Assembly: GCF_056746865.1 (NCBI RefSeq)
Contig: NZ_CM163382.1
Reading direction: 5' to 3' (one strand)
DNA length: 64,000 nt
The notes under the pieces are model-generated. The model did not search any database and was not told the DNA's origin. It saw only the letters and a list, made by a program, of their open reading frames with translations. The translations under genes were made by a program, and so were the position numbers. Position 1 is the stretch's first letter. Each line of letters opens with the position of its first letter. Positions 3,835 through 19,742 of the stretch are shown in pieces.

Positions 3835-3911
3835 GCGCCCTTAGCTCAGTTGGATAGAGCAACGACCTTCTAAGTCGTGGGCCGCAGGTTCGAATCCTGC
3901 AGGGCGCGCCA
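3835..3911 (+). tRNA. argU: tRNA-Arg (anticodon UCU)
   Basis: 77-nt cloverleaf GCGCCCTTAGCTCAGTTGGATAGAGC...TTCGAATCCTGCAGGGCGCGCCA with UCU anticodon; 3' 45 nt repeated at 50407-50451. Confidence 0.95.
3867..3911 (+). repeat. attL core (3' part of argU)
   Basis: 45-bp sequence cttctaagtcgtgggccgcaggttcgaatcctgcagggcgcgcca repeated at 50407-50451; integrase gene adjacent. Confidence 0.85.
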
Positions 3912-3926
3912 TTACAATTCAATCAG

Positions 3927-5090
3927 TTACGCCTTCTTTATATCCTCCATAATTCCAGAGTGGGACATATTTGGGACATTATCACCAAAAATGTCGTCTA
4001 TTTTCCTCGCATGCTCTGTCAAATGATTAGGCGCAAGGTGAGCATACCTACGAACCATTTCTATGGACTCCCATCCGCCCATTTCCTGAAGCACTGATAA
4101 TGGGACGCCTGACTGAATCAGCCAGCTTGCCCAGGTGTGTCTGAGGTCATGGAAACGGAAATCTTCAATTCCTGCACGACGACAAGCTGATAGCCATGAT
4201 GTCTTGCTGTCGATGCGCATCTTCCTGACCGCAGGCGTTGATGTTCCATCTGCTCGCTTAGCCGCCTTGGTATGTACAAACACCCATTTGTGATGCTTGC
4301 CTATTTGATCACGCAACACTTTACAGGCGGTATCGTTCAGCGCCACACCAATGGCGCGGTTTGATTTGCTCTCTTCTGGATTCACCCAGGCAACTCGTCG
4401 CTGCATGTCGATTTGTTGCCATTCCAGATTTATGATGTTCGACTTTCTCAGACCAGTTGCCAGCGCAAACTTGACGACAGATTTCAGTGGTTCGGGGCAC
4501 TCATCAATAAGGCGTTTTGCTTCCTCCTTTTCCAGCCATCTGACTCGCTTGTTTCTGACCGCTGGTATCTTGATGACAGGCGCTTTTTCCAGCCACTTCC
4601 AGTCGCGTTCTGCAGCACGGAGAATGGCCTTTATCATGGCAAGATGCTTTGCCTTTGTCTGAGTTGATACTGGCTTTGGTTCATAAACAGGCAGTTCTTT
4701 ACCTTTCCTGATGGCGGCCTGAACTTTCTGTTTCCATATTTCTTTCGTCTTTCTGTTATGCATTCTGCTTACAGCAGAGTAAATCTTTGCCTCCGAGATA
4801 TCTTTAAGCCTTATACCCTCAAAATGTTCAAGCCAGAACTCAATCCGGCTTTTATCTGAATCGAGAGATTTTTTATCAGCTTTTTCCTCAAGCCATCTTA
4901 GGCAGGCCTCTTCAAAAGTGACATCAGGTAAATCCCCTAGCTTTTCTACTCGCCAGAGTTCTGCTTTTCGCTTGTCGTGCAACTCCTGAGCTTGCCGCTT
5001 GTCCTTTGTGCCAAGAGATTCCTTAATTCGTTTCCCGCCCGGGAGCGAATACGAGGCATACCATATTTCATTTCTGCGGAAGAGTGACAT
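3927..5090 (-). CDS. intD: tyrosine recombinase / prophage integrase (argU-site type)
   Basis: 387-aa ORF with C-terminal catalytic region (HDLRHTWAS...RYAH) immediately next to tRNA attL. Confidence 0.9.
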
Positions 5091-9095: not shown

Positions 9096-10028
9096 CTATT
9101 CGATTTTTTTAACCATGTAGTTACGTCGTGATGTTCCTAATCTTTCATTGTGAATCTCAGAAACGCTTACTACGAGCGATATTCGTTCACCAACTTTATA
9201 TTTACTTTGAATTTCTCCTAACATATCAATCGGATAAGAAGCCTTTATTTTTCCAAGCTCGCTTGCAATCTCCAATTTCCCGTACATGGATAAAATAGCA
9301 AGTTCGCCTGATATATGCTCATCCGGTAGCTGAATGACCTTCGTTAAAGCTAAGCGAGCATTCAGTTTTTTTATATCTTCTGAAGAAATTGACACTTGTC
9401 TGGTACCATCACTTAAAGGTCCAATCCAAGTAAGATCAAAGTTAAGACTATATTTTTCGCACTCATTTATGATGTTTTTTAGGTTAGCTGTTGATTGCGA
9501 ACCAATTTCGGCAATTTTAGCCGTGAATGTTTCTTCATCAATGGATGAGAGTAGTGCAAAAATCTCCTTAACAGCATGACTGGATACTGTTTCGATGAGC
9601 TCGCAAGAACCAGTAGAAAAAGTAACACCTAACTTCGTCGAACCTGGACGCAAGTCTGCCAATCTCATGTCTAATGATTTTTTAACATCAATCGGCACAC
9701 GACTAGAATCTTTCCCAGATCCAAGTCGGTAAACTGCTTTCTGTACAAGGGATGCGAGATTACCTGAAATTACAGATAGAATATCTAACGGAATAGACCC
9801 GAAATCGACCAAAACACCTTTTAATCTCAACTCCATGAAATCACGTAAAGGATGTTGGTTATCGATTGCACGTTGTCTCTCTCGGAGATCGCTCAGATGG
9901 GAGTCAAGTGATCTAAATATAATGTCATCAGCAAATGATCTCCCCTTATTTTGAGCAAGCAGATCCACATCGCGTTGAATGAACGCAATTCGCTCCTTGA
10001 GGGAGTTGAATGTTTTTTCTTCGCTCAT
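9096..10028 (-). CDS. hypothetical 310-aa protein, second gene of repressor-linked cargo operon
   Basis: AT-rich ORF, start overlaps upstream gene stop by 4 bp; no recognisable motif; occupies the rexAB-equivalent position. Confidence 0.7.
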   Translation of the reverse strand: MSEEKTFNSLKERIAFIQRDVDLLAQNKGRSFADDIIFRSLDSHLSDLRERQRAIDNQHPLRDFMELRLKGVLVDFGSIPLDILSVISGNLASLVQKAVYRLGSGKDSSRVPIDVKKSLDMRLADLRPGSTKLGVTFSTGSCELIETVSSHAVKEIFALLSSIDEETFTAKIAEIGSQSTANLKNIINECEKYSLNFDLTWIGPLSDGTRQVSISSEDIKKLNARLALTKVIQLPDEHISGELAILSMYGKLEIASELGKIKASYPIDMLGEIQSKYKVGERISLVVSVSEIHNERLGTSRRNYMVKKIE

Positions 10029-10498
10029 AACATTACCCTCACGAGGCCTTTAGGATTCTCCTTCCGATCAAAACCAAACCACCCTCTCCAGTAACTTCGC
10101 CTTTCACTATAATCGATTTCTGGATGATTTTCAGGCAGCAAAAGAACGTCAATGCTGTAGTTTTCTTTAATAAAATCTCTATTTAACAATGAGCTGACCA
10201 ATGGCATCAGCGTGTTTGGCAAAGAGTTTAGGGCCAAATAATCGACGACCACGAGTATATCTATGTCATCAGGTTCAGGTTTCTCTGTAGTGAATGAACC
10301 ATCGATCCACACTTCAGAGAAACATAGACACTGCTGATTAACAAGTTTAAATTGCTCAATAAGCTGTATAAAATTACAGTATAGCATACTTCTTCTAACG
10401 GATTTTGGGAAGGTGTCGACACAAAGAGACTTGATGCCATCACTATCCATATCATGAAATCCTGCTGTAAGAAGAGGTGGGAAGCTAGGCTTTTCCAT
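10025..10498 (-). CDS. nucleotidyltransferase-fold (minimal NTase-like) protein, first gene of cargo operon
   Basis: Motif WIDGSFTTEKPEPDDIDILVVVD fits the G-S...D-x-D signature of Pol-beta-type NTases; 82 bp downstream of cI on same strand. Confidence 0.65.
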   Translation of the reverse strand: MEKPSFPPLLTAGFHDMDSDGIKSLCVDTFPKSVRRSMLYCNFIQLIEQFKLVNQQCLCFSEVWIDGSFTTEKPEPDDIDILVVVDYLALNSLPNTLMPLVSSLLNRDFIKENYSIDVLLLPENHPEIDYSERRSYWRGWFGFDRKENPKGLVRVML

Positions 10499-11373: not shown

Positions 11374-11604
11374 ATGAACCCAGCTATCAAAACAGCGATC
11401 AATATCGTTGGTTCACAAAAGAAACTGGGCGCTGCTTGCGAAGTTTCACAGCAGGCCGTCTATAAGTGGCTTCACAACAAAGCAAAGGTATCCCCTGAAC
11501 ATGTCGGCAGCATTGTTACGGCTACTGGTGGAGTAGTGAAGGCATACCAGATTCGCCCGGATCTTCCGAAGTTGTTTCCACACACCGAAAAGAACGCAGC
11601 TTAA
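11374..11604 (+). CDS. Cro/YdaS-like small DNA-binding regulator
   Basis: 76-aa product, divergently transcribed from repressor; resembles Rac YdaS-type cro analogues. Confidence 0.65.
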   Translation: MNPAIKTAINIVGSQKKLGAACEVSQQAVYKWLHNKAKVSPEHVGSIVTATGGVVKAYQIRPDLPKLFPHTEKNAA

Positions 11605-11673
11605 ATTTCCATTTCACGCTCTTTAACAATAAGCAATCAACTTAACAGTCAATTCAAACTAAAGGAGTCAATT

Positions 11674-12213
11674 ATGCAACCACTTCCATACCAACAGACT
11701 AGCGGATTTAGCCCGACTGCGGTGATAAATCGTTCTCAAACAAAACAGGTGCCAGGCCACGAAAAAATCCGTGATGCCGTCCGCGCCTGGTCGGCTGTAG
11801 ATAATCAGGATGTCGTTGCCACACTCATTGTGAATGAGTATCGGGAGCAGGGCGGCGGCACCATCGATTTCCCTGATGATGTCAGCCGTGCACGCCAGAA
11901 GCTGTTCCGCTTCCTCGATAACAAATTCGATTCTGAAAAATACCGAAATAACGTGCGTGAACTGACCCCGGCAATTCTGGCGGTACTACCGCTGGAATAT
12001 CGCGGTTACCTGGTTGAGCAGGATAGCTTCATGGCTAGGTTGGCTGAAATGGAAAAGGAACTCAGTGAGGCAAAACAGGCTGTCATTCTCAACGCACCAC
12101 GCCACCAGAAACTGAAGGAAATTAGTGAAGGTATTGTATCGATGTTTCGTGTGGACCCAGATCTGGCTGGTCCATTGATGGCGATGGTTACTACCATGCT
12201 GGGGGCGATATGA
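11674..12213 (+). CDS. YdaT-like protein (CII position)
   Basis: 179-aa ORF after cro-like gene; sequence pattern reminiscent of Rac YdaT family. Confidence 0.45.
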   Translation: MQPLPYQQTSGFSPTAVINRSQTKQVPGHEKIRDAVRAWSAVDNQDVVATLIVNEYREQGGGTIDFPDDVSRARQKLFRFLDNKFDSEKYRNNVRELTPAILAVLPLEYRGYLVEQDSFMARLAEMEKELSEAKQAVILNAPRHQKLKEISEGIVSMFRVDPDLAGPLMAMVTTMLGAI

Positions 12214-12300
12214 CAGGTTCAGAAATGGCGAAAGCCGGTCTGCTGGAACAGAACCGACTTTCAGGTGCAAATCGTAACACACTCATTGCGGGAGGAATTA

Positions 12301-13229
12301 TGGCAAACACTGCTGAGATATTCAATTTTCCAGTGCCGGATGCGGCACAAAAGGAGCCGCGCGTGGCAGATCTCGATGATGGTTATACGCGCATTGCAAA
12401 TGAGTTGCTGGAAGCTGTGATGCTGGCCGGATTAACACAGCACCAGCTTCTGGTCTTCCTGGCTGTCATGCGCAAAACATATGGCTTTAATAAAAAACTG
12501 GATTGGGTGAGCAACGAGCAACTTTCCGAATTGACCGGGATATTGCCGCACAAGTGTTCTGCTGCAAAAAGCGTTCTGGTAAAGCGTGGGATTCTTATTC
12601 AGAGCGGGCGGAATATCGGCATTAATAATGTGGTCAGTGAATGGTCAACATTACCCGAATCAGGTAAGAAAAATAAAGTTTACCTGAAAGAGGTAAATTT
12701 ACCTGAATCAGGTAAGAAAAGTTTACCCAAATCAGGTAAAGGCGTTTACCCGAATCAGGTAAACACAAAAGACAAACTAACAAAAGACAATATAAAACCT
12801 TTTTCGTCCGAGAATTCTGGCGAATCCTCTGACCAGCCAGAAAACGATCTTCCTGTGGTGAAACCGGATGCTGCAATTCAGAGCGGCAGCAAGTGGGGGA
12901 CAGCAGAAGACCTGACCGCCGCAGAGTGGATGTTTGACATGGTGAAGACTATCGCACCATCAGCCAGAAAACCGAATTTTGCTGGGTGGGCTAACGATAT
13001 CCGCCTGATGCGTGAACGTGACGGACGTAACCACCGCGACATGTGCGTGCTGTTCCGCTGGGCCTGCCAGGACAACTTCTGGTCCGGTAACGTGCTGAGT
13101 CCGGCCAAACTCCGCGACAAGTGGACCCAGCTCGAAATCAACCGGAACAAGCAACAGGCTGGCGTGACAGTCGGCAAACCAAAACTCGACCTGACAAACA
13201 CTGACTGGATTTACGGGGTGGATCTATGA
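12301..13229 (+). CDS. O: replication initiator O (divergent N-terminal DNA-binding domain, lambda-like C-terminal domain)
   Basis: Start at MANTAEIFNF preceded by GGGAGG; C-terminal half recognised as lambda O; contains iterons. Confidence 0.85.
12651..12763. repeat. ori iterons (5 copies of an 18-bp TTACC-N8-GGTAA repeat) inside O
   Basis: ttacccgaatcaggtaag, ttacctgaaagaggtaaa, ttacctgaatcaggtaag, ttacccaaatcaggtaaa, ttacccgaatcaggtaaa, followed by an A-rich stretch. Confidence 0.8.
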
Positions 13230-13927
13230 AAAACATCGCCGCACAGATGGTTAACTTTGACCGTGAGCAGATGCGTCGGATCGCCAACAACATGCCGGAA
13301 CAGTATGACGAAAAGCCACAGGTACAGCAGGTAGCGCAGATCATCAACGGTGTGTTCAGCCAGTTACTGGCAACTTTCCCGGCGAGCCTGGCTAATCGTG
13401 AGCAGAACGAACTGAACGAAATCCGCCGCCAGTGGGTTCTGGCTTTCCGGGAAAACGGGATCACCACGATGGAACAGGTTAACGCAGGAATGCGCGTAGC
13501 CCGTCGGCAGAATCGACCATTCCTGCCATCCCCCGGACAGTTTGTAGCCTGGTGCCGGGAAGAAGCATCCGTTATTGCCGGACTACCAAACACCAGCGAG
13601 CTGGTTGATATGGTTTACGAGTATTGCCGGAAGCGTGGCCTGTATCCGGATGCAGAGTCTTATCCGTGGAAATCAAACGCGCACTACTGGCTGGTTACCA
13701 ACCTGTATCAGAACATGCGGGCCAATGCGCTTACTGATGCGGAATTACGGCGCAAGGCTGCCGATGAACTGACTTGTATGACCGCGCGAATTAACCGTGG
13801 TGAGGCGATACCTGAACCAGTAAAACAACTTCCTGTCATGGGCGGTAGACCTCTAAATCGTGCACAGGCTCTGGCGAAGATCGCAGAAATCAAAGCGAAG
13901 TTCGGACTGAAAGGAGCAACTGTATGA
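13226..13927 (+). CDS. P: replication protein P (DnaB helicase loader)
   Basis: 233-aa product recognised as near-identical to lambda P. Confidence 0.95.
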   Translation: MKNIAAQMVNFDREQMRRIANNMPEQYDEKPQVQQVAQIINGVFSQLLATFPASLANREQNELNEIRRQWVLAFRENGITTMEQVNAGMRVARRQNRPFLPSPGQFVAWCREEASVIAGLPNTSELVDMVYEYCRKRGLYPDAESYPWKSNAHYWLVTNLYQNMRANALTDAELRRKAADELTCMTARINRGEAIPEPVKQLPVMGGRPLNRAQALAKIAEIKAKFGLKGATV

Positions 13928-14474: not shown

Positions 14475-15977
14475 TTAAATTGCATCTGCAAACTCTGGGG
14501 TTTTTCGCTCAGGTATAATTGATGAGTTGCTGTTGTCACTTTTTTTATTTTCATGATTACGAATAGCCAATGACTCATTAAAGTCTTTTGCGACTGCTGT
14601 CTCAATAAATTCAATTTCTGAATCAGAGTGTTTTTTAACAGCTTCTTTGATCTCATCCAGAGTAACATAGAAAAACTCTTTTCTACGATTTACAAGATTG
14701 ACTCTCTTTTTATCGAAGACATCATGTAGTTTTTTTTCTAATGATGGAGCGTCCTCCGAATAAATCATGGCATGTACATCAAAAATAAAAGGAACAGATG
14801 CATCACCGAGCTCATTTACACGGTCTTGCGGATCAAGACGTCGTGTCATGCCTATTTTATAAACATTCTCCCCAAAAGAACCTATGTTCGAAATAATATA
14901 AACATGACCTTGTTTGGTTTGTTGTGCCATGGATAATGCTCTTTGATGCTTTGATTCAGCCTGCGACAAACTCTGTTCTAGTTCGGCAATGCGATTTTCG
15001 AGGCGCTGCTTCATGTCACCAGTAACTTTTTCCATTTCCTTTCTTGCAGCTTCAATTGCTTTTTTATAACGGCGCTCTTCTGCCTCTGCGTCTTGCATGG
15101 CCTTTTCTATTTCTCGTTGTGCACGCTCCTCCTCTCTCATTTGTGCCCTTATTTCTGCCTGTTCTTCTTTTTCTTTCTGTTTTTGCTCACGATATTCATG
15201 GGTAAGCCACAATTCCTCAAGTTTTTTATTGAGGTATTTAGTGTTTATATATATGTGATTTTGCTCGTTTAGTTTATTTATGGCCTCAAATGCCTTTGTG
15301 ATGCGTTCTTCCATTTTAGTGATGTTTTTCCACGTGCAATTGCTAATTGCAGCATCACATTCATTATTAAATGCTCTAGTAGTTAGCCTGATATTTCTGT
15401 CTGTCATTTTTTTACCCTCTGCTCGAGAGCCTTCAACAGTCCATTGGGTTGTACAATATACTGCGCCAGAGTGGGTTTTATCCCGCAGCATTAATTTCTG
15501 TTCATCCCTGATGGATTTTATTTTGTTTTTAAATTGCTCTGAATCTTCAAAATTAAAATGAGGTTCGTAAAATCCTAGTTCGGCTAGCTCAACATCTTCT
15601 GAATAAATAGAAATTTGCCTTACTAGTTTATCATATATTTCTTTCTTCTCTTTATAAGTTCTTCTTAGCTCTTGGATTTGTTTATTGATACCATCCATTT
15701 TTTCAATGGTGTTTGTTAGTTCATTATTGGCATTTTCTTTTACTTTTAGGGATTCTTCTTTTATTATGGAGCATTCTTGCTCTGTTTTCTCAATAAGCTT
15801 CTTACATTCTTCTTCTACATTAAAATAATCTGCAAAGCGAGATTTGTATTCTTCATTTTTTTGATTGCTATCACTTAATTCTAATTGTATTTTTTTGATG
15901 CGTTTGATTGCAGCTATATAAAGAACAAGAACAACCAATAAAAATATGATTGCAAGTAATAGAGGAGTTTGAGTCAT
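14475..15977 (-). CDS. membrane-anchored coiled-coil protein with C-terminal T5orf172/GIY-YIG-like domain (candidate defence/exclusion gene)
   Basis: N-terminal hydrophobic helix, long K/E-rich coiled coil, C-terminal GHVYIISN...YKIGMTRRLDPQDRVNEL...VPF motif; very AT-rich; opposite strand to surrounding early genes. Confidence 0.75.
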   Translation of the reverse strand: MTQTPLLLAIIFLLVVLVLYIAAIKRIKKIQLELSDSNQKNEEYKSRFADYFNVEEECKKLIEKTEQECSIIKEESLKVKENANNELTNTIEKMDGINKQIQELRRTYKEKKEIYDKLVRQISIYSEDVELAELGFYEPHFNFEDSEQFKNKIKSIRDEQKLMLRDKTHSGAVYCTTQWTVEGSRAEGKKMTDRNIRLTTRAFNNECDAAISNCTWKNITKMEERITKAFEAINKLNEQNHIYINTKYLNKKLEELWLTHEYREQKQKEKEEQAEIRAQMREEERAQREIEKAMQDAEAEERRYKKAIEAARKEMEKVTGDMKQRLENRIAELEQSLSQAESKHQRALSMAQQTKQGHVYIISNIGSFGENVYKIGMTRRLDPQDRVNELGDASVPFIFDVHAMIYSEDAPSLEKKLHDVFDKKRVNLVNRRKEFFYVTLDEIKEAVKKHSDSEIEFIETAVAKDFNESLAIRNHENKKSDNSNSSIIPERKTPEFADAI

Positions 15978-16370: not shown

Positions 16371-16789
16371 ACATTCGGTGTTTTACTTCGACAGCCAGAA
16401 TTGGGAGTCTCTATTCGTCTGGCGGCTAAAGGTGATATGGAAATCGTTATGTTTTGGCCTGAGGTAGTTGTAACTGTTGTAGCAGCTATGGATGTGATCA
16501 TCATGGTGTCCATTTACTGGGGTTGACGACATGATTTATCCGGCGCTATATTCTGTGCGTTGCCGCAAAATCGGCACACGGGATTGGCGTCCCGGGATAC
16601 TACTCAACGCATACCGCGTTAAGCGGTTTTTTTGTGCGCTAAGCACGGCTATGCCCAAATTATGGTGGGCTGTGTGAGGGCTTCTTCGGAAGCGCCGGGT
16701 TTGAGTAGCCGGTTACGCCAACCTTACACAGTTCACCACCAGTCGATTGGCGTCGTTGGTGGTGATGGTTAACCTGATGAGGTGATACT

Positions 16790-17398
16790 ATGACTACTCA
16801 ATTAGCATTCCACAAAACGACGTTTACCCCGATTTGCCACAATAACAGAATTTGGCTTACTGCCACTGAAGTTGGTTTAGCACTGGAATATGCGGACGAT
16901 AAAGCAGTTCAGCGCATTTACTCTCGGCACTCAGATGAATTCACAGATATGATGACAAGGGTGGTCAAAGTGACCACCCCTCGTGGAATGCAGGAGTCTC
17001 GAGTATTTAGCCTTCGCGGAGCCCATTTGATCGCCATGTTTGCTCGTACTCCTGTGGCCAAAGAATTCCGCCGCTGGGTTCTGGATATTCTCGATCGAGA
17101 AGTTCAACAATCCCCAATCACAAAACAATTCACTGATAACGAACTTTGCACACTCGCCTGGTTATGGCGAGCAAGTGATACGATGTTAACCGCCTGCCAG
17201 AACGTTACGCCCCTTCTTCAGGTCGCAGAGCATCGCGAAGCAGGTAGATTCACTTCAATCGAACAAGAATATCCTCGGATACTCAACAGGGCGCGAGAAA
17301 TCCTTGCCAGAGAAACGGCGCATGTAAAATTCCAACCGTGGCAGGATGATAAGTGGAGTCGTGTGTTACCATATTTCCGTCAGAATCTGTTGCAATAA
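16790..17398 (+). CDS. Bro-N/antirepressor-like protein
   Basis: N-terminal pattern ...RIWLTATEVGLALEY...RWVLDIL resembles Bro-N/Ant-type phage domains. Confidence 0.55.
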   Translation: MTTQLAFHKTTFTPICHNNRIWLTATEVGLALEYADDKAVQRIYSRHSDEFTDMMTRVVKVTTPRGMQESRVFSLRGAHLIAMFARTPVAKEFRRWVLDILDREVQQSPITKQFTDNELCTLAWLWRASDTMLTACQNVTPLLQVAEHREAGRFTSIEQEYPRILNRAREILARETAHVKFQPWQDDKWSRVLPYFRQNLLQ

Positions 17399-18143: not shown

Positions 18144-18220
18144 TTTTCAGCACATTTGATTTCCAATAATCAACCAGCCATAATCATGCCATTGGAGCTT
18201 GAACAACTCCGGTGACTTCT

Positions 18221-18304
18221 GCGCTAAACGGGGACGTTTATGCGCACATACAATCCAAACTCTCTTCTCCCTTCACAGATGCAGAGATGCACCTGCGATT
18301 TTTT
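18221..18304 (+). repeat. 84-bp direct repeat, copy 2
   Basis: Second copy of the repeat at 16287-16370, immediately upstream of ybcN. Confidence 0.85.
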
Positions 18305-18337
18305 GCATCCAGCGTTTGACCTCTGCGGAGGTGAAGC

Positions 18338-18793
18338 GTGAACCTCCCACAAGACGGCATCAAATTGCATCGTGGTAACTTCACCGCTATCGGCCAGCAG
18401 ATCCAGCCTTATCTGGAGGAAGGCAAATGCTTTCGCATGGTGCTTAAACCGTGGCGTGAGAAACGCAGTCTTTCCCAGAATGCACTCAGCCACATGTGGT
18501 ACAGCGAAATCAGTGAATACCTCATCAGCAGGGGTAAAACGTTCGCCACTCCAGCTTGGGTAAAAGATGCTCTCAAACACACATATCTCGGTTATGAAAC
18601 CAAAGACCTGGTTGATGTCGTAACCGGTGAGATCACCACTATCCAGTCGTTACGCCATACCTCCGATCTTGATACCGGAGAGATGTATATCTTCCTGTGT
18701 AAGGTTGAAGCCTGGGCGGTGAATATTGGCTGCCACCTGACTATTCCGCAGAGCTGCGAGTTCCAGCTGCTGCGCGACAAGCAGGAGGCGTAA
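18338..18793 (+). CDS. ybcN: YbcN-family nin-region protein
   Basis: GTG start after GGAGG; 151-aa product recognised as DLP12 YbcN. Confidence 0.85.
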
Positions 18794-18963
18794 TGGCTAC
18801 ACCGCTTATTCGTGTCATGAACGGACACATCTACAGAGTACCAAATCGTCGTAAGCGTAAACCTGAGCTGAAGCCATCCGAAATACCAACACTGCTCGGA
18901 TATACCGCCAGCTTGGTTGATAAAAAATGGTTGCGACTGGCAGCAAGGAGGAATCATGGCTGA
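18793..18963 (+). CDS. ninE: NinE-family protein
   Basis: 56-aa [19 protein letters not shown]..., below the ORF-track cutoff; start overlaps ybcN stop. Confidence 0.7.
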   Translation: MATPLIRVMNGHIYRVPNRRKRKPELKPSEIPTLLGYTASLVDKKWLRLAARRNHG

Positions 18964-19246
18964 TTTGAGAAAAGCAGCGCGTGGTCGGGAATGCCAGGTA
19001 AGAATCCCTGGCGTATGTAATGGCAATTCTGAGACGTCTGTACTGGCACATATCCGGCTGGCTGGATTGTGCGGTACCGGTATCAAACCGCCAGACCTGA
19101 TTGCCACCATTGCATGTTCTGCCTGCCACGACGAAATCGACCGCCGCACGCATTTTGTTGACGCTGGATATGCAAAAGAATGCGCGCTGGAAGGTATGGC
19201 GAGAACGCAGGTTATCTGGCTGAAAGAGAGGGTAATTAAGGCGTGA
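18956..19246 (+). CDS. ybcO: YbcO-family nin-region protein
   Basis: Start at [14 protein letters not shown]; Cys-rich product recognised as DLP12 YbcO. Confidence 0.8.
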
Positions 19247-19605
19247 ATACTTACCACATCACACTACCCTGGCCTCCGAGCAATAATCGCTATTACCGCC
19301 ATAATCGCGGGCGCACGCACGTCAGCGCAGAGGGGCAGGCATACCGCGATAACGTCGCCCGAATCATTAAAAACGCAATGCTGGATATCGGCCTGGCTAT
19401 GCCTGTGAAAATCCGCATTGAGTGCCACATGCCGGATCGCCGTCGCCGTGACCTGGATAATCTGCAAAAAGCCGCTTTTGACGCACTCACTAAAGCAGGT
19501 TTCTGGCTGGATGATGCTCAGGTCGTTGATTACCGCGTTGTGAAGATGCCTGTTACCAAAGGTGGGAGGCTGGAACTGACCATCACCGAAATGGGGAATG
19601 AATGA
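19243..19605 (+). CDS. rusA: Holliday-junction resolvase RusA
   Basis: 120-aa product recognised as RusA. Confidence 0.95.
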
Positions 19606-19742
19606 TGTTTGAGTTTAATATGGCAGAACTTCTTCGCCACCGCTGGGGGCGTCTGCGCTTATATCGTTTCCCCGGCTCTGTTTTGACCGATTACCGAATA
19701 CTGAAGAATTACGCCAAAACACTGACAGGAGCAGGAGTATGA
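19602..19742 (+). CDS. ylcG: YlcG-family small protein
   Basis: 46-aa [21 protein letters not shown]... overlapping rusA stop. Confidence 0.6.

Follow-up and report, generated by a model that had tools for sequence, protein, structure and literature searches.

A probable lambdoid replication origin with TTACC/GGTAA iterons in the O gene of an E. coli argU-site prophage

The window, a 64-kb stretch of E. coli chromosome, carries a lambdoid prophage adjoining tRNA-Arg(tct) at the argU/DLP12 site, and a region within the O gene of this prophage is very probably its replication origin, similar in build to ori-lambda and endowed with a specificity of its own. At such an origin, O dimers would bind an array of dyad iterons, an A-rich element beside them would unwind, and P and DnaB would be loaded. 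We describe below the observed anatomy of the region, its homology, the selection on its half-sites and their co-variation with the N-terminal domain of O; binding, unwinding, helicase loading and firing would, by analogy, follow the lambda precedent. An origin placed within O and a modular pairing of N-domain and iterons have been textbook knowledge since about 1980, and the origin described here represents a distinct, common and under-annotated specificity class that is ordinary in kind. It is framed by the following genes and sites.

12300-13229, + strand: O-family initiator gene (Pfam Phage_rep_O, PF04492, E 1.6e-34; lambda/434 O alignment)
12300-12650, + strand: type-specific N-terminal origin-binding domain of O, a predicted winged helix (identity to lambda, P22 and GZ7; AF2 model)
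12810-13226, + strand: lambda-type C-terminal domain of O, P-interacting by homology (434/lambda O alignment)
13226-13927, + strand: gene for lambda P, the helicase loader (Pfam Phage_lambda_P, PF06992, E 2e-61), overlapping the O stop codon
12297-12325, - strand: tentative leftward promoter-like site, TTGAAT-17-TGnCATAAT (consensus scan)

The database annotation, in RefSeq and in phages, starts O at ATG 12210 (339 aa), overlapping the stop codon of the ydaT-like gene; homology to lambda O and the GGAGGA Shine-Dalgarno that precedes it point to ATG 12300 (309 aa) as the homologous start. The PF04492 match spans residues 51-145 of O, and the iterons encode residues 118-154 counted from ATG 12300, as compared with residues 117-144 in lambda. 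Both O (309/339 aa) and P (233 aa) are intact, and 13226-13927 is annotated as P in homologous phages. The two halves of O have different affinities: the C-domain is about 97% identical to that of lambda, four of the last 139 residues differing from 434/lambda O and near-identity beginning at about residue 183 of the ORF, and P is likewise that of lambda, whereas the N-domain is only about 49% identical to that of lambda (48.7% over 115 aa; 49.5% over the core), as against 65.7% to P22 gp18 and 83.8% to Klebsiella phage GZ7. The promoter-like site at the 5' end of O may tentatively be placed in the position of lambda pO, the oop promoter, the pO/oop position for this comparison having been taken from the 434, 21 and phi80 records; an Rfam scan of the O region returned nothing, including no match to an oop-like family.

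At the argU/DLP12 site (3835-5090) the prophage carries an integrase of the intD type. The genes upstream of O encode an S24 repressor and analogues of Cro and CII. The Cro analogue is a 76-aa protein of the YdaS family and the CII analogue a 179-aa protein of the YdaT family (11374-12213, + strand); Pfam calls these families 'toxins', and they are found here in the cro/cII slots. The Cro-like and CII genes of phi80, which are of similar size, may be related to them. Left of the cI-like repressor, a gene pair on the - strand (9096-10498), whose products are a hypothetical protein of 310 aa and a DUF6932 protein of 157 aa, occupies the position of lambda rexAB and matches the PADLOC candidate PDC-M63B/PDC-M63A (E 4e-42 and 7e-43). 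Just downstream of ren, a 500-aa DUF4041 + T5orf172/MUG113 protein (14475-15977, - strand) gives a full-length match to the PADLOC defence model PD-Lambda-1 (E 2e-198). Further along the + strand, a Bro-N/P22_AR_C antirepressor gene (16790-17398) is immediately preceded by Rfam isrK (16561-16633) and a C4 antisense RNA (16658-16743), and 16561-17398 as a whole looks like a P1/P7-style antisense-controlled antirepressor module within a lambdoid prophage.

A repeat finder and a pattern search both return five exact copies of TTACC-N7-GGTAA within 112 bp of the O gene, directly followed by an A-rich element.

12651-12667: iteron 1, TTACCCGAATCAGGTAA; an extra copy 29 bp upstream of iteron 2, without counterpart among lambda's four
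12680-12696: iteron 2, TTACCTGAAAGAGGTAA; position equivalent of lambda ITN1
12699-12715: iteron 3, TTACCTGAATCAGGTAA; position equivalent of lambda ITN2
12723-12739: iteron 4, TTACCCAAATCAGGTAA; position equivalent of lambda ITN3
12746-12762: iteron 5, TTACCCGAATCAGGTAA; position equivalent of lambda ITN4, immediately next to the AT-rich element
12763-12806 (44 bp), + strand: A-rich, strand-asymmetric element, ACACAAAAGACAAACTAACAAAAGACAATATAAAACC..., the presumed DNA-unwinding region

The iterons follow one another at start-to-start distances of 29, 19, 24 and 23 bp. Each has a 17-bp core with a 7-nt spacer, which extends to 19 bp as TTTACC-N7-GGTAAA in most copies if the flanking T/A is counted, as it is for lambda. 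With one mismatch allowed, the pattern search over the whole window adds only one site to the five, and shuffled sequence yields a mean of 1.2 one-mismatch matches per 64 kb, with 0 of 100 shuffles reaching 6; five exact copies in so short a stretch rule out a chance origin. The A-rich element has a GC content of 0.25 and an AT-skew of +0.73 (12760-12799) and marks where high DNA identity to lambda starts on the left: the megablast match to lambda-type phages sets in at about 12750-12763 and, from the last iteron and AT-rich element rightward, has 94-96% identity. The original prediction of a lambdoid origin embedded in its initiator gene is supported, at the level of sequence, by an array that sits in the O linker at lambda's position, by a conserved AT-rich element and by a C-domain and P that are lambda's. 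It had described five 18-bp repeats of the form TTACC-N8-GGTAA followed by an A-rich stretch; the five exact repeats, their dyad symmetry and the A-rich stretch stand, and the spacer and core are corrected to N7 and 17 bp. A dyad array inside a Phage_rep_O gene, an AT-rich element, a downstream P gene and co-variation of the array with the N-domain together reproduce the architecture of ori-lambda.

Repeats inside a coding sequence might in principle be a repeated peptide of the flexible O linker, kept by protein selection and leaving the DNA dyads as a by-product, and the array does encode a low-complexity, K/S/G/P-rich linker in which LPESGK occurs twice. However, translation runs through the repeat in two different frames of O, which yield unrelated peptides, LPESGK/LPKSGK in one and VYLKEVN/VYPNQVN in the other. 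We compared the window with 8 divergent relatives (N-domain DNA identity 76-82%), which represent roughly 4 lineages and are non-independent, so that the conservation statistics overstate the sample size, although the contrast is still large: half-site positions diverge by 1.0%, spacers by 15%, inter-iteron linkers by 29% and flanking sequence by 39%. Spacers and linkers are peptide-coding as well, and yet they diverge by 15-29%. Third-codon positions show 0% divergence within the half-sites (14 positions, 8 loci), compared with 47% in the N-domain core of the flanking gene. The analysis of frames and codon positions refutes the peptide-repeat reading, to which we attach almost no probability. 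Because the iterons are read in two frames and their half-site bases are nearly invariant, down to the third codon position, selection is, as judged from these alignments, on the DNA of the repeats and not on the peptide.

Within the type, conservation extends to the layout of the array, as five iterons with identical spacing are found in 80 of 80 IMG/VR relatives, a scan that gave close relatives only (at least 84% identity) and that we used for within-type conservation and not for breadth. Among the 8 divergent relatives, the half-sites of iterons 2-5 are invariant in all 8; half-site variation is confined to iteron 1 (GGTAA to GGTAC), which also has the most numerous spacer changes. This pattern fits an auxiliary role for iteron 1, comparable to that of the extra upstream iterons of Stx phages, which bind O weakly (PMC7466680).

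The half-site class of the iterons co-varies with the N-domain of O, and half-sites are invariant within a type. An AF2 model of the N-domain, of moderate confidence (pLDDT 77), has a winged helix-turn-helix fold with a beta-hairpin wing, in which residues 83-95 from ATG 12300 (PHKCSAAKSVLVK) form the predicted recognition helix. Its best folds in the PDB are MarR/CRP-type winged-helix proteins, at weak E-values (5e-3 and above), and a sequence search found no solved structure of O. When 15 N-domains are aligned, the half-site is seen to change with a few residues at the turn and start of the predicted recognition helix across 14 O-family genes, a correlation that rests on about 8 specificity classes, of which the following illustrate the pairing of helix motif and half-site.

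LPHKC / APTKC (PHKC/PTKC): half-site TTACC, in the window type and P22
HHTH: half-site TTAGC, in SEN34, phiES15 and HK97
PVKRC (VKRC): half-site TCCCT, in lambda
PRQKV (RQKV): half-site GTCAC, in mEp043

The N-domain of SEN34 is 58% identical to the window type and 43% identical to HK97, and yet it carries the HHTH motif and TTAGC half-site of HK97. We infer that this helix-start motif is the specificity determinant.

Palindromes of this kind could also act as hairpins or cruciforms, in mRNA or single-stranded DNA, which would regulate the translation or stability of O and would not be protein sites. The single-strand DNA fold of the region reaches -23.7 kcal/mol (z = -5.1 relative to shuffles), and the stems are conserved while the loops vary. 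However, there are no compensatory stem changes within the type, where the half-site sequence itself is fixed, and between types an array changes as a unit, in step with the helix motif of the initiator; this concerted change therefore speaks for a common trans-acting reader. The equivalent sites of lambda, moreover, have been footprinted by O (PMC7466680). We consider the hairpin reading very improbable and interpret the iterons as binding sites for O.

In lambda, O binds each iteron, and the iterons together with the AT-rich region constitute the origin, at which an O-some forms, the AT-rich region unwinds and the O C-domain recruits P with DnaB (PMC7466680, PMC6022878, PMC8022706). By analogy, we envision that O initiator dimers would bind the dyad iterons of the window with one winged-helix N-domain per half-site, and that the core O-some would be built on iterons 2-5, iteron 1 serving as an auxiliary site. 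Wrapping of the DNA in this complex would make the A-rich element beside it unstable, after which lambda P, with host DnaB attached, would be brought in by way of the lambda-type C-domain of O.

The sites could be genuine O-binding sites and still be an inactive relic in this prophage, or serve mainly for titration of O or autoregulation and not for the firing of replication. Many E. coli prophages are defective, and decayed versions of the locus are known: in E. coli CUVET20-PYO2 a natural loss of 23 bp between iterons 4 and 5 shifts the reading frame of O, and an IMG/VR locus (L074) has an IS1 insertion right after the AT-rich element. The weak binding of O to the extra iterons of Stx phages (PMC7466680) is also compatible with such a role. 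Against this, O and P of the window are intact and all five iterons are perfect, and 15 sequenced phage genomes (INPHARED) carry the module at about 98% identity. In these phages the O gene is 97.5-98.1% identical across its whole length, and several of them are recorded with laboratory E. coli hosts; the 15 include Perceval, 4A7, Lambda_4C10, 1W, 3W, Turner and the PhiR series, which have the same origin type. A relic or titration array thus appears unlikely to us, and we favour an origin that supports replication.

The N-domain and iterons behave as a module that is joined to at least three right-hand partners, the junction lying just after the AT-rich element in every case.

Partner 1: lambda-type C-domain and lambda P, in the window and the 15 sequenced phages
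Partner 2: a different C-domain and a divergent P-like protein, in locus L087
Partner 3: a third C-domain and a DnaC-like ATPase, in Klebsiella phages GZ7 and 6 LV-2017 and in E. coli AW1.7

GZ7 and 6 LV-2017 have the iteron number, spacing and half-sites of the window, and differ from it in their C-domain and DnaC-like loader. Phage D2 has a split hybrid O gene, in which a window-type N-terminus switches to lambda iterons.

At a segment coverage of at least 80%, 2295 of 5426 complete E. coli genomes (42%) contain the N-domain + iteron segment, at up to five places per genome, and 1323 of the 5426 (24%) contain the equivalent lambda segment. The records of Perceval, GZ7, 6 LV-2017, D2 and RefSeq 118UI carry no origin annotation and label the gene "replication protein (O)", and a literature search for the literal iteron strings gave no match. 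It is a real possibility, if one we lean slightly against, that the TTACC-N7-GGTAA/PHKC pairing is an experimentally uncharacterised specificity group and at the same time the commonest O/ori type of E. coli prophages. In that case, O produced by a single induced prophage would set off replication at all cognate origins of the cell, those of defective prophages included, and a simple code would link recognition-helix motif and half-site throughout the O family, making cross-talk and incompatibility predictable from sequence. The assignment changes no concept, and its value, for a type that outnumbers the textbook lambda type among complete E. coli genomes, lies mainly in annotation: it supplies an exact coordinate of the origin for analyses of induction and coverage, and predicts the replication-compatibility class of prophages that share a poly-lysogen, as in O157 strains with 3-4 copies. 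It also offers a natural data set on the retargeting of a winged-helix initiator, in which one helix-start motif is set against one half-site base (TTACC versus TTAGC).

Alignment with the origins of lambda, phi80 and 21, which the original prediction had proposed as a check, places an array like that of lambda at this site, with half-sites that differ from those of lambda, 434, 21 and phi80. In a DNA alignment to the annotated 434/lambda origin, iterons 2-5 match ITN1-4 column for column, and the AT-rich region of lambda aligns with the element of the window as ACACAAAAGACA...ACAAAAGA.AATA.AAA. The spacing is 20/24/23 bp in lambda and 19/24/23 bp here, about two helical turns, with one more iteron here 29 bp upstream; the count is thus five, as compared with four in lambda and six in the Stx phages 933W and P27. 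Lambda, 434 and 21 share with the window an origin in the O linker, dyad iterons of 17-19 bp and a conserved AT-rich ACACAAAAGAC... element. Their half-sites, however, are TCCCT/AGGGA (TCCCT-N7-AGGGA), and the lambda-group iteron consensus ATCCCTCAAAACGAGGGAT is absent from the window, where the five repeats carry TTACC/GGTAA. Because of these half-sites and an N-domain only 48.7% identical, the origin would, on sequence grounds, fall outside the lambda replication-specificity group of lambda, 434, 21 and the Stx phages.

The same plan recurs with other half-sites. A dyad-iteron array occupies this site in 14 of 15 O-family genes surveyed, giving 13 distinct arrays, with the identical arrays of phi80 and HK225 counted as one and Erwinia phage Midgardsormr38 left out of the array table, the de novo iteron finder having settled there on a C/G palindrome in place of an iteron array. 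The iterons are TTCCC-N6-GGGAA with a 21-bp period in phi80 (gene 15), TTAGC-N7-GCTAA in HK97, phiES15 and SEN34, GTCAC-N7-GTGAC in mEp043, and ATCCC-N8-GGGAT in seven copies in Gifsy-1; phi80, HK97, mEp043 and Gifsy-1 all have, as here, a dyad-iteron array in an O-family gene and then an AT-rich element. A core spacing of 20/24/23 bp is common to lambda, 21, HK97, mEp043 and P22. Immediately after the last iteron comes (A)CACAAAAGA(C), as such or in a close variant, in all of the distinct arrays but that of phi80/HK225 (12 of 13). The CACAAAAGA motif is found, independently of the iteron sequence, in phages of E. coli, Salmonella, Klebsiella, Cronobacter, Hafnia and Mannheimia and, more loosely, of Pseudomonas.

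Phage 82 reportedly has an O N-domain/ori specificity of its own and recombines with lambda within O, and the mosaic O gene of the window agrees with recombination of that kind. The origin may be of the classical phage 82 type, a live possibility because the nin region of the prophage (ybcN-ninE-ybcO-rusA-ylcG; 18168-19732) is 96.5% identical to the phage 82 record X92588; the Q gene differs, being of the quuD type here. For the phage 82 origin, sequence collections yielded this nin/Q record alone, and a literature search returned citations in reference lists only.

Among classical phages, P22 provides the nearest relative. Its gene 18 has the closest N-domain (65.7%), nearly the same half-sites, TTACC/GGTAA, and the same AT-rich element, and its rep_origin is annotated at the same position in the gene. 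P22 differs in having four dyads with a core of 15-16 bp, 1-2 bp shorter, as opposed to five of 17 bp here, and in a different C-domain that is paired with the DnaB-type helicase gp12, where the window has P. The N-domain and iterons had been predicted to define a replication specificity distinct from that of lambda; both do differ from lambda and co-vary with one another, and it is P22 gene 18, not lambda, that is their closest classical relative.
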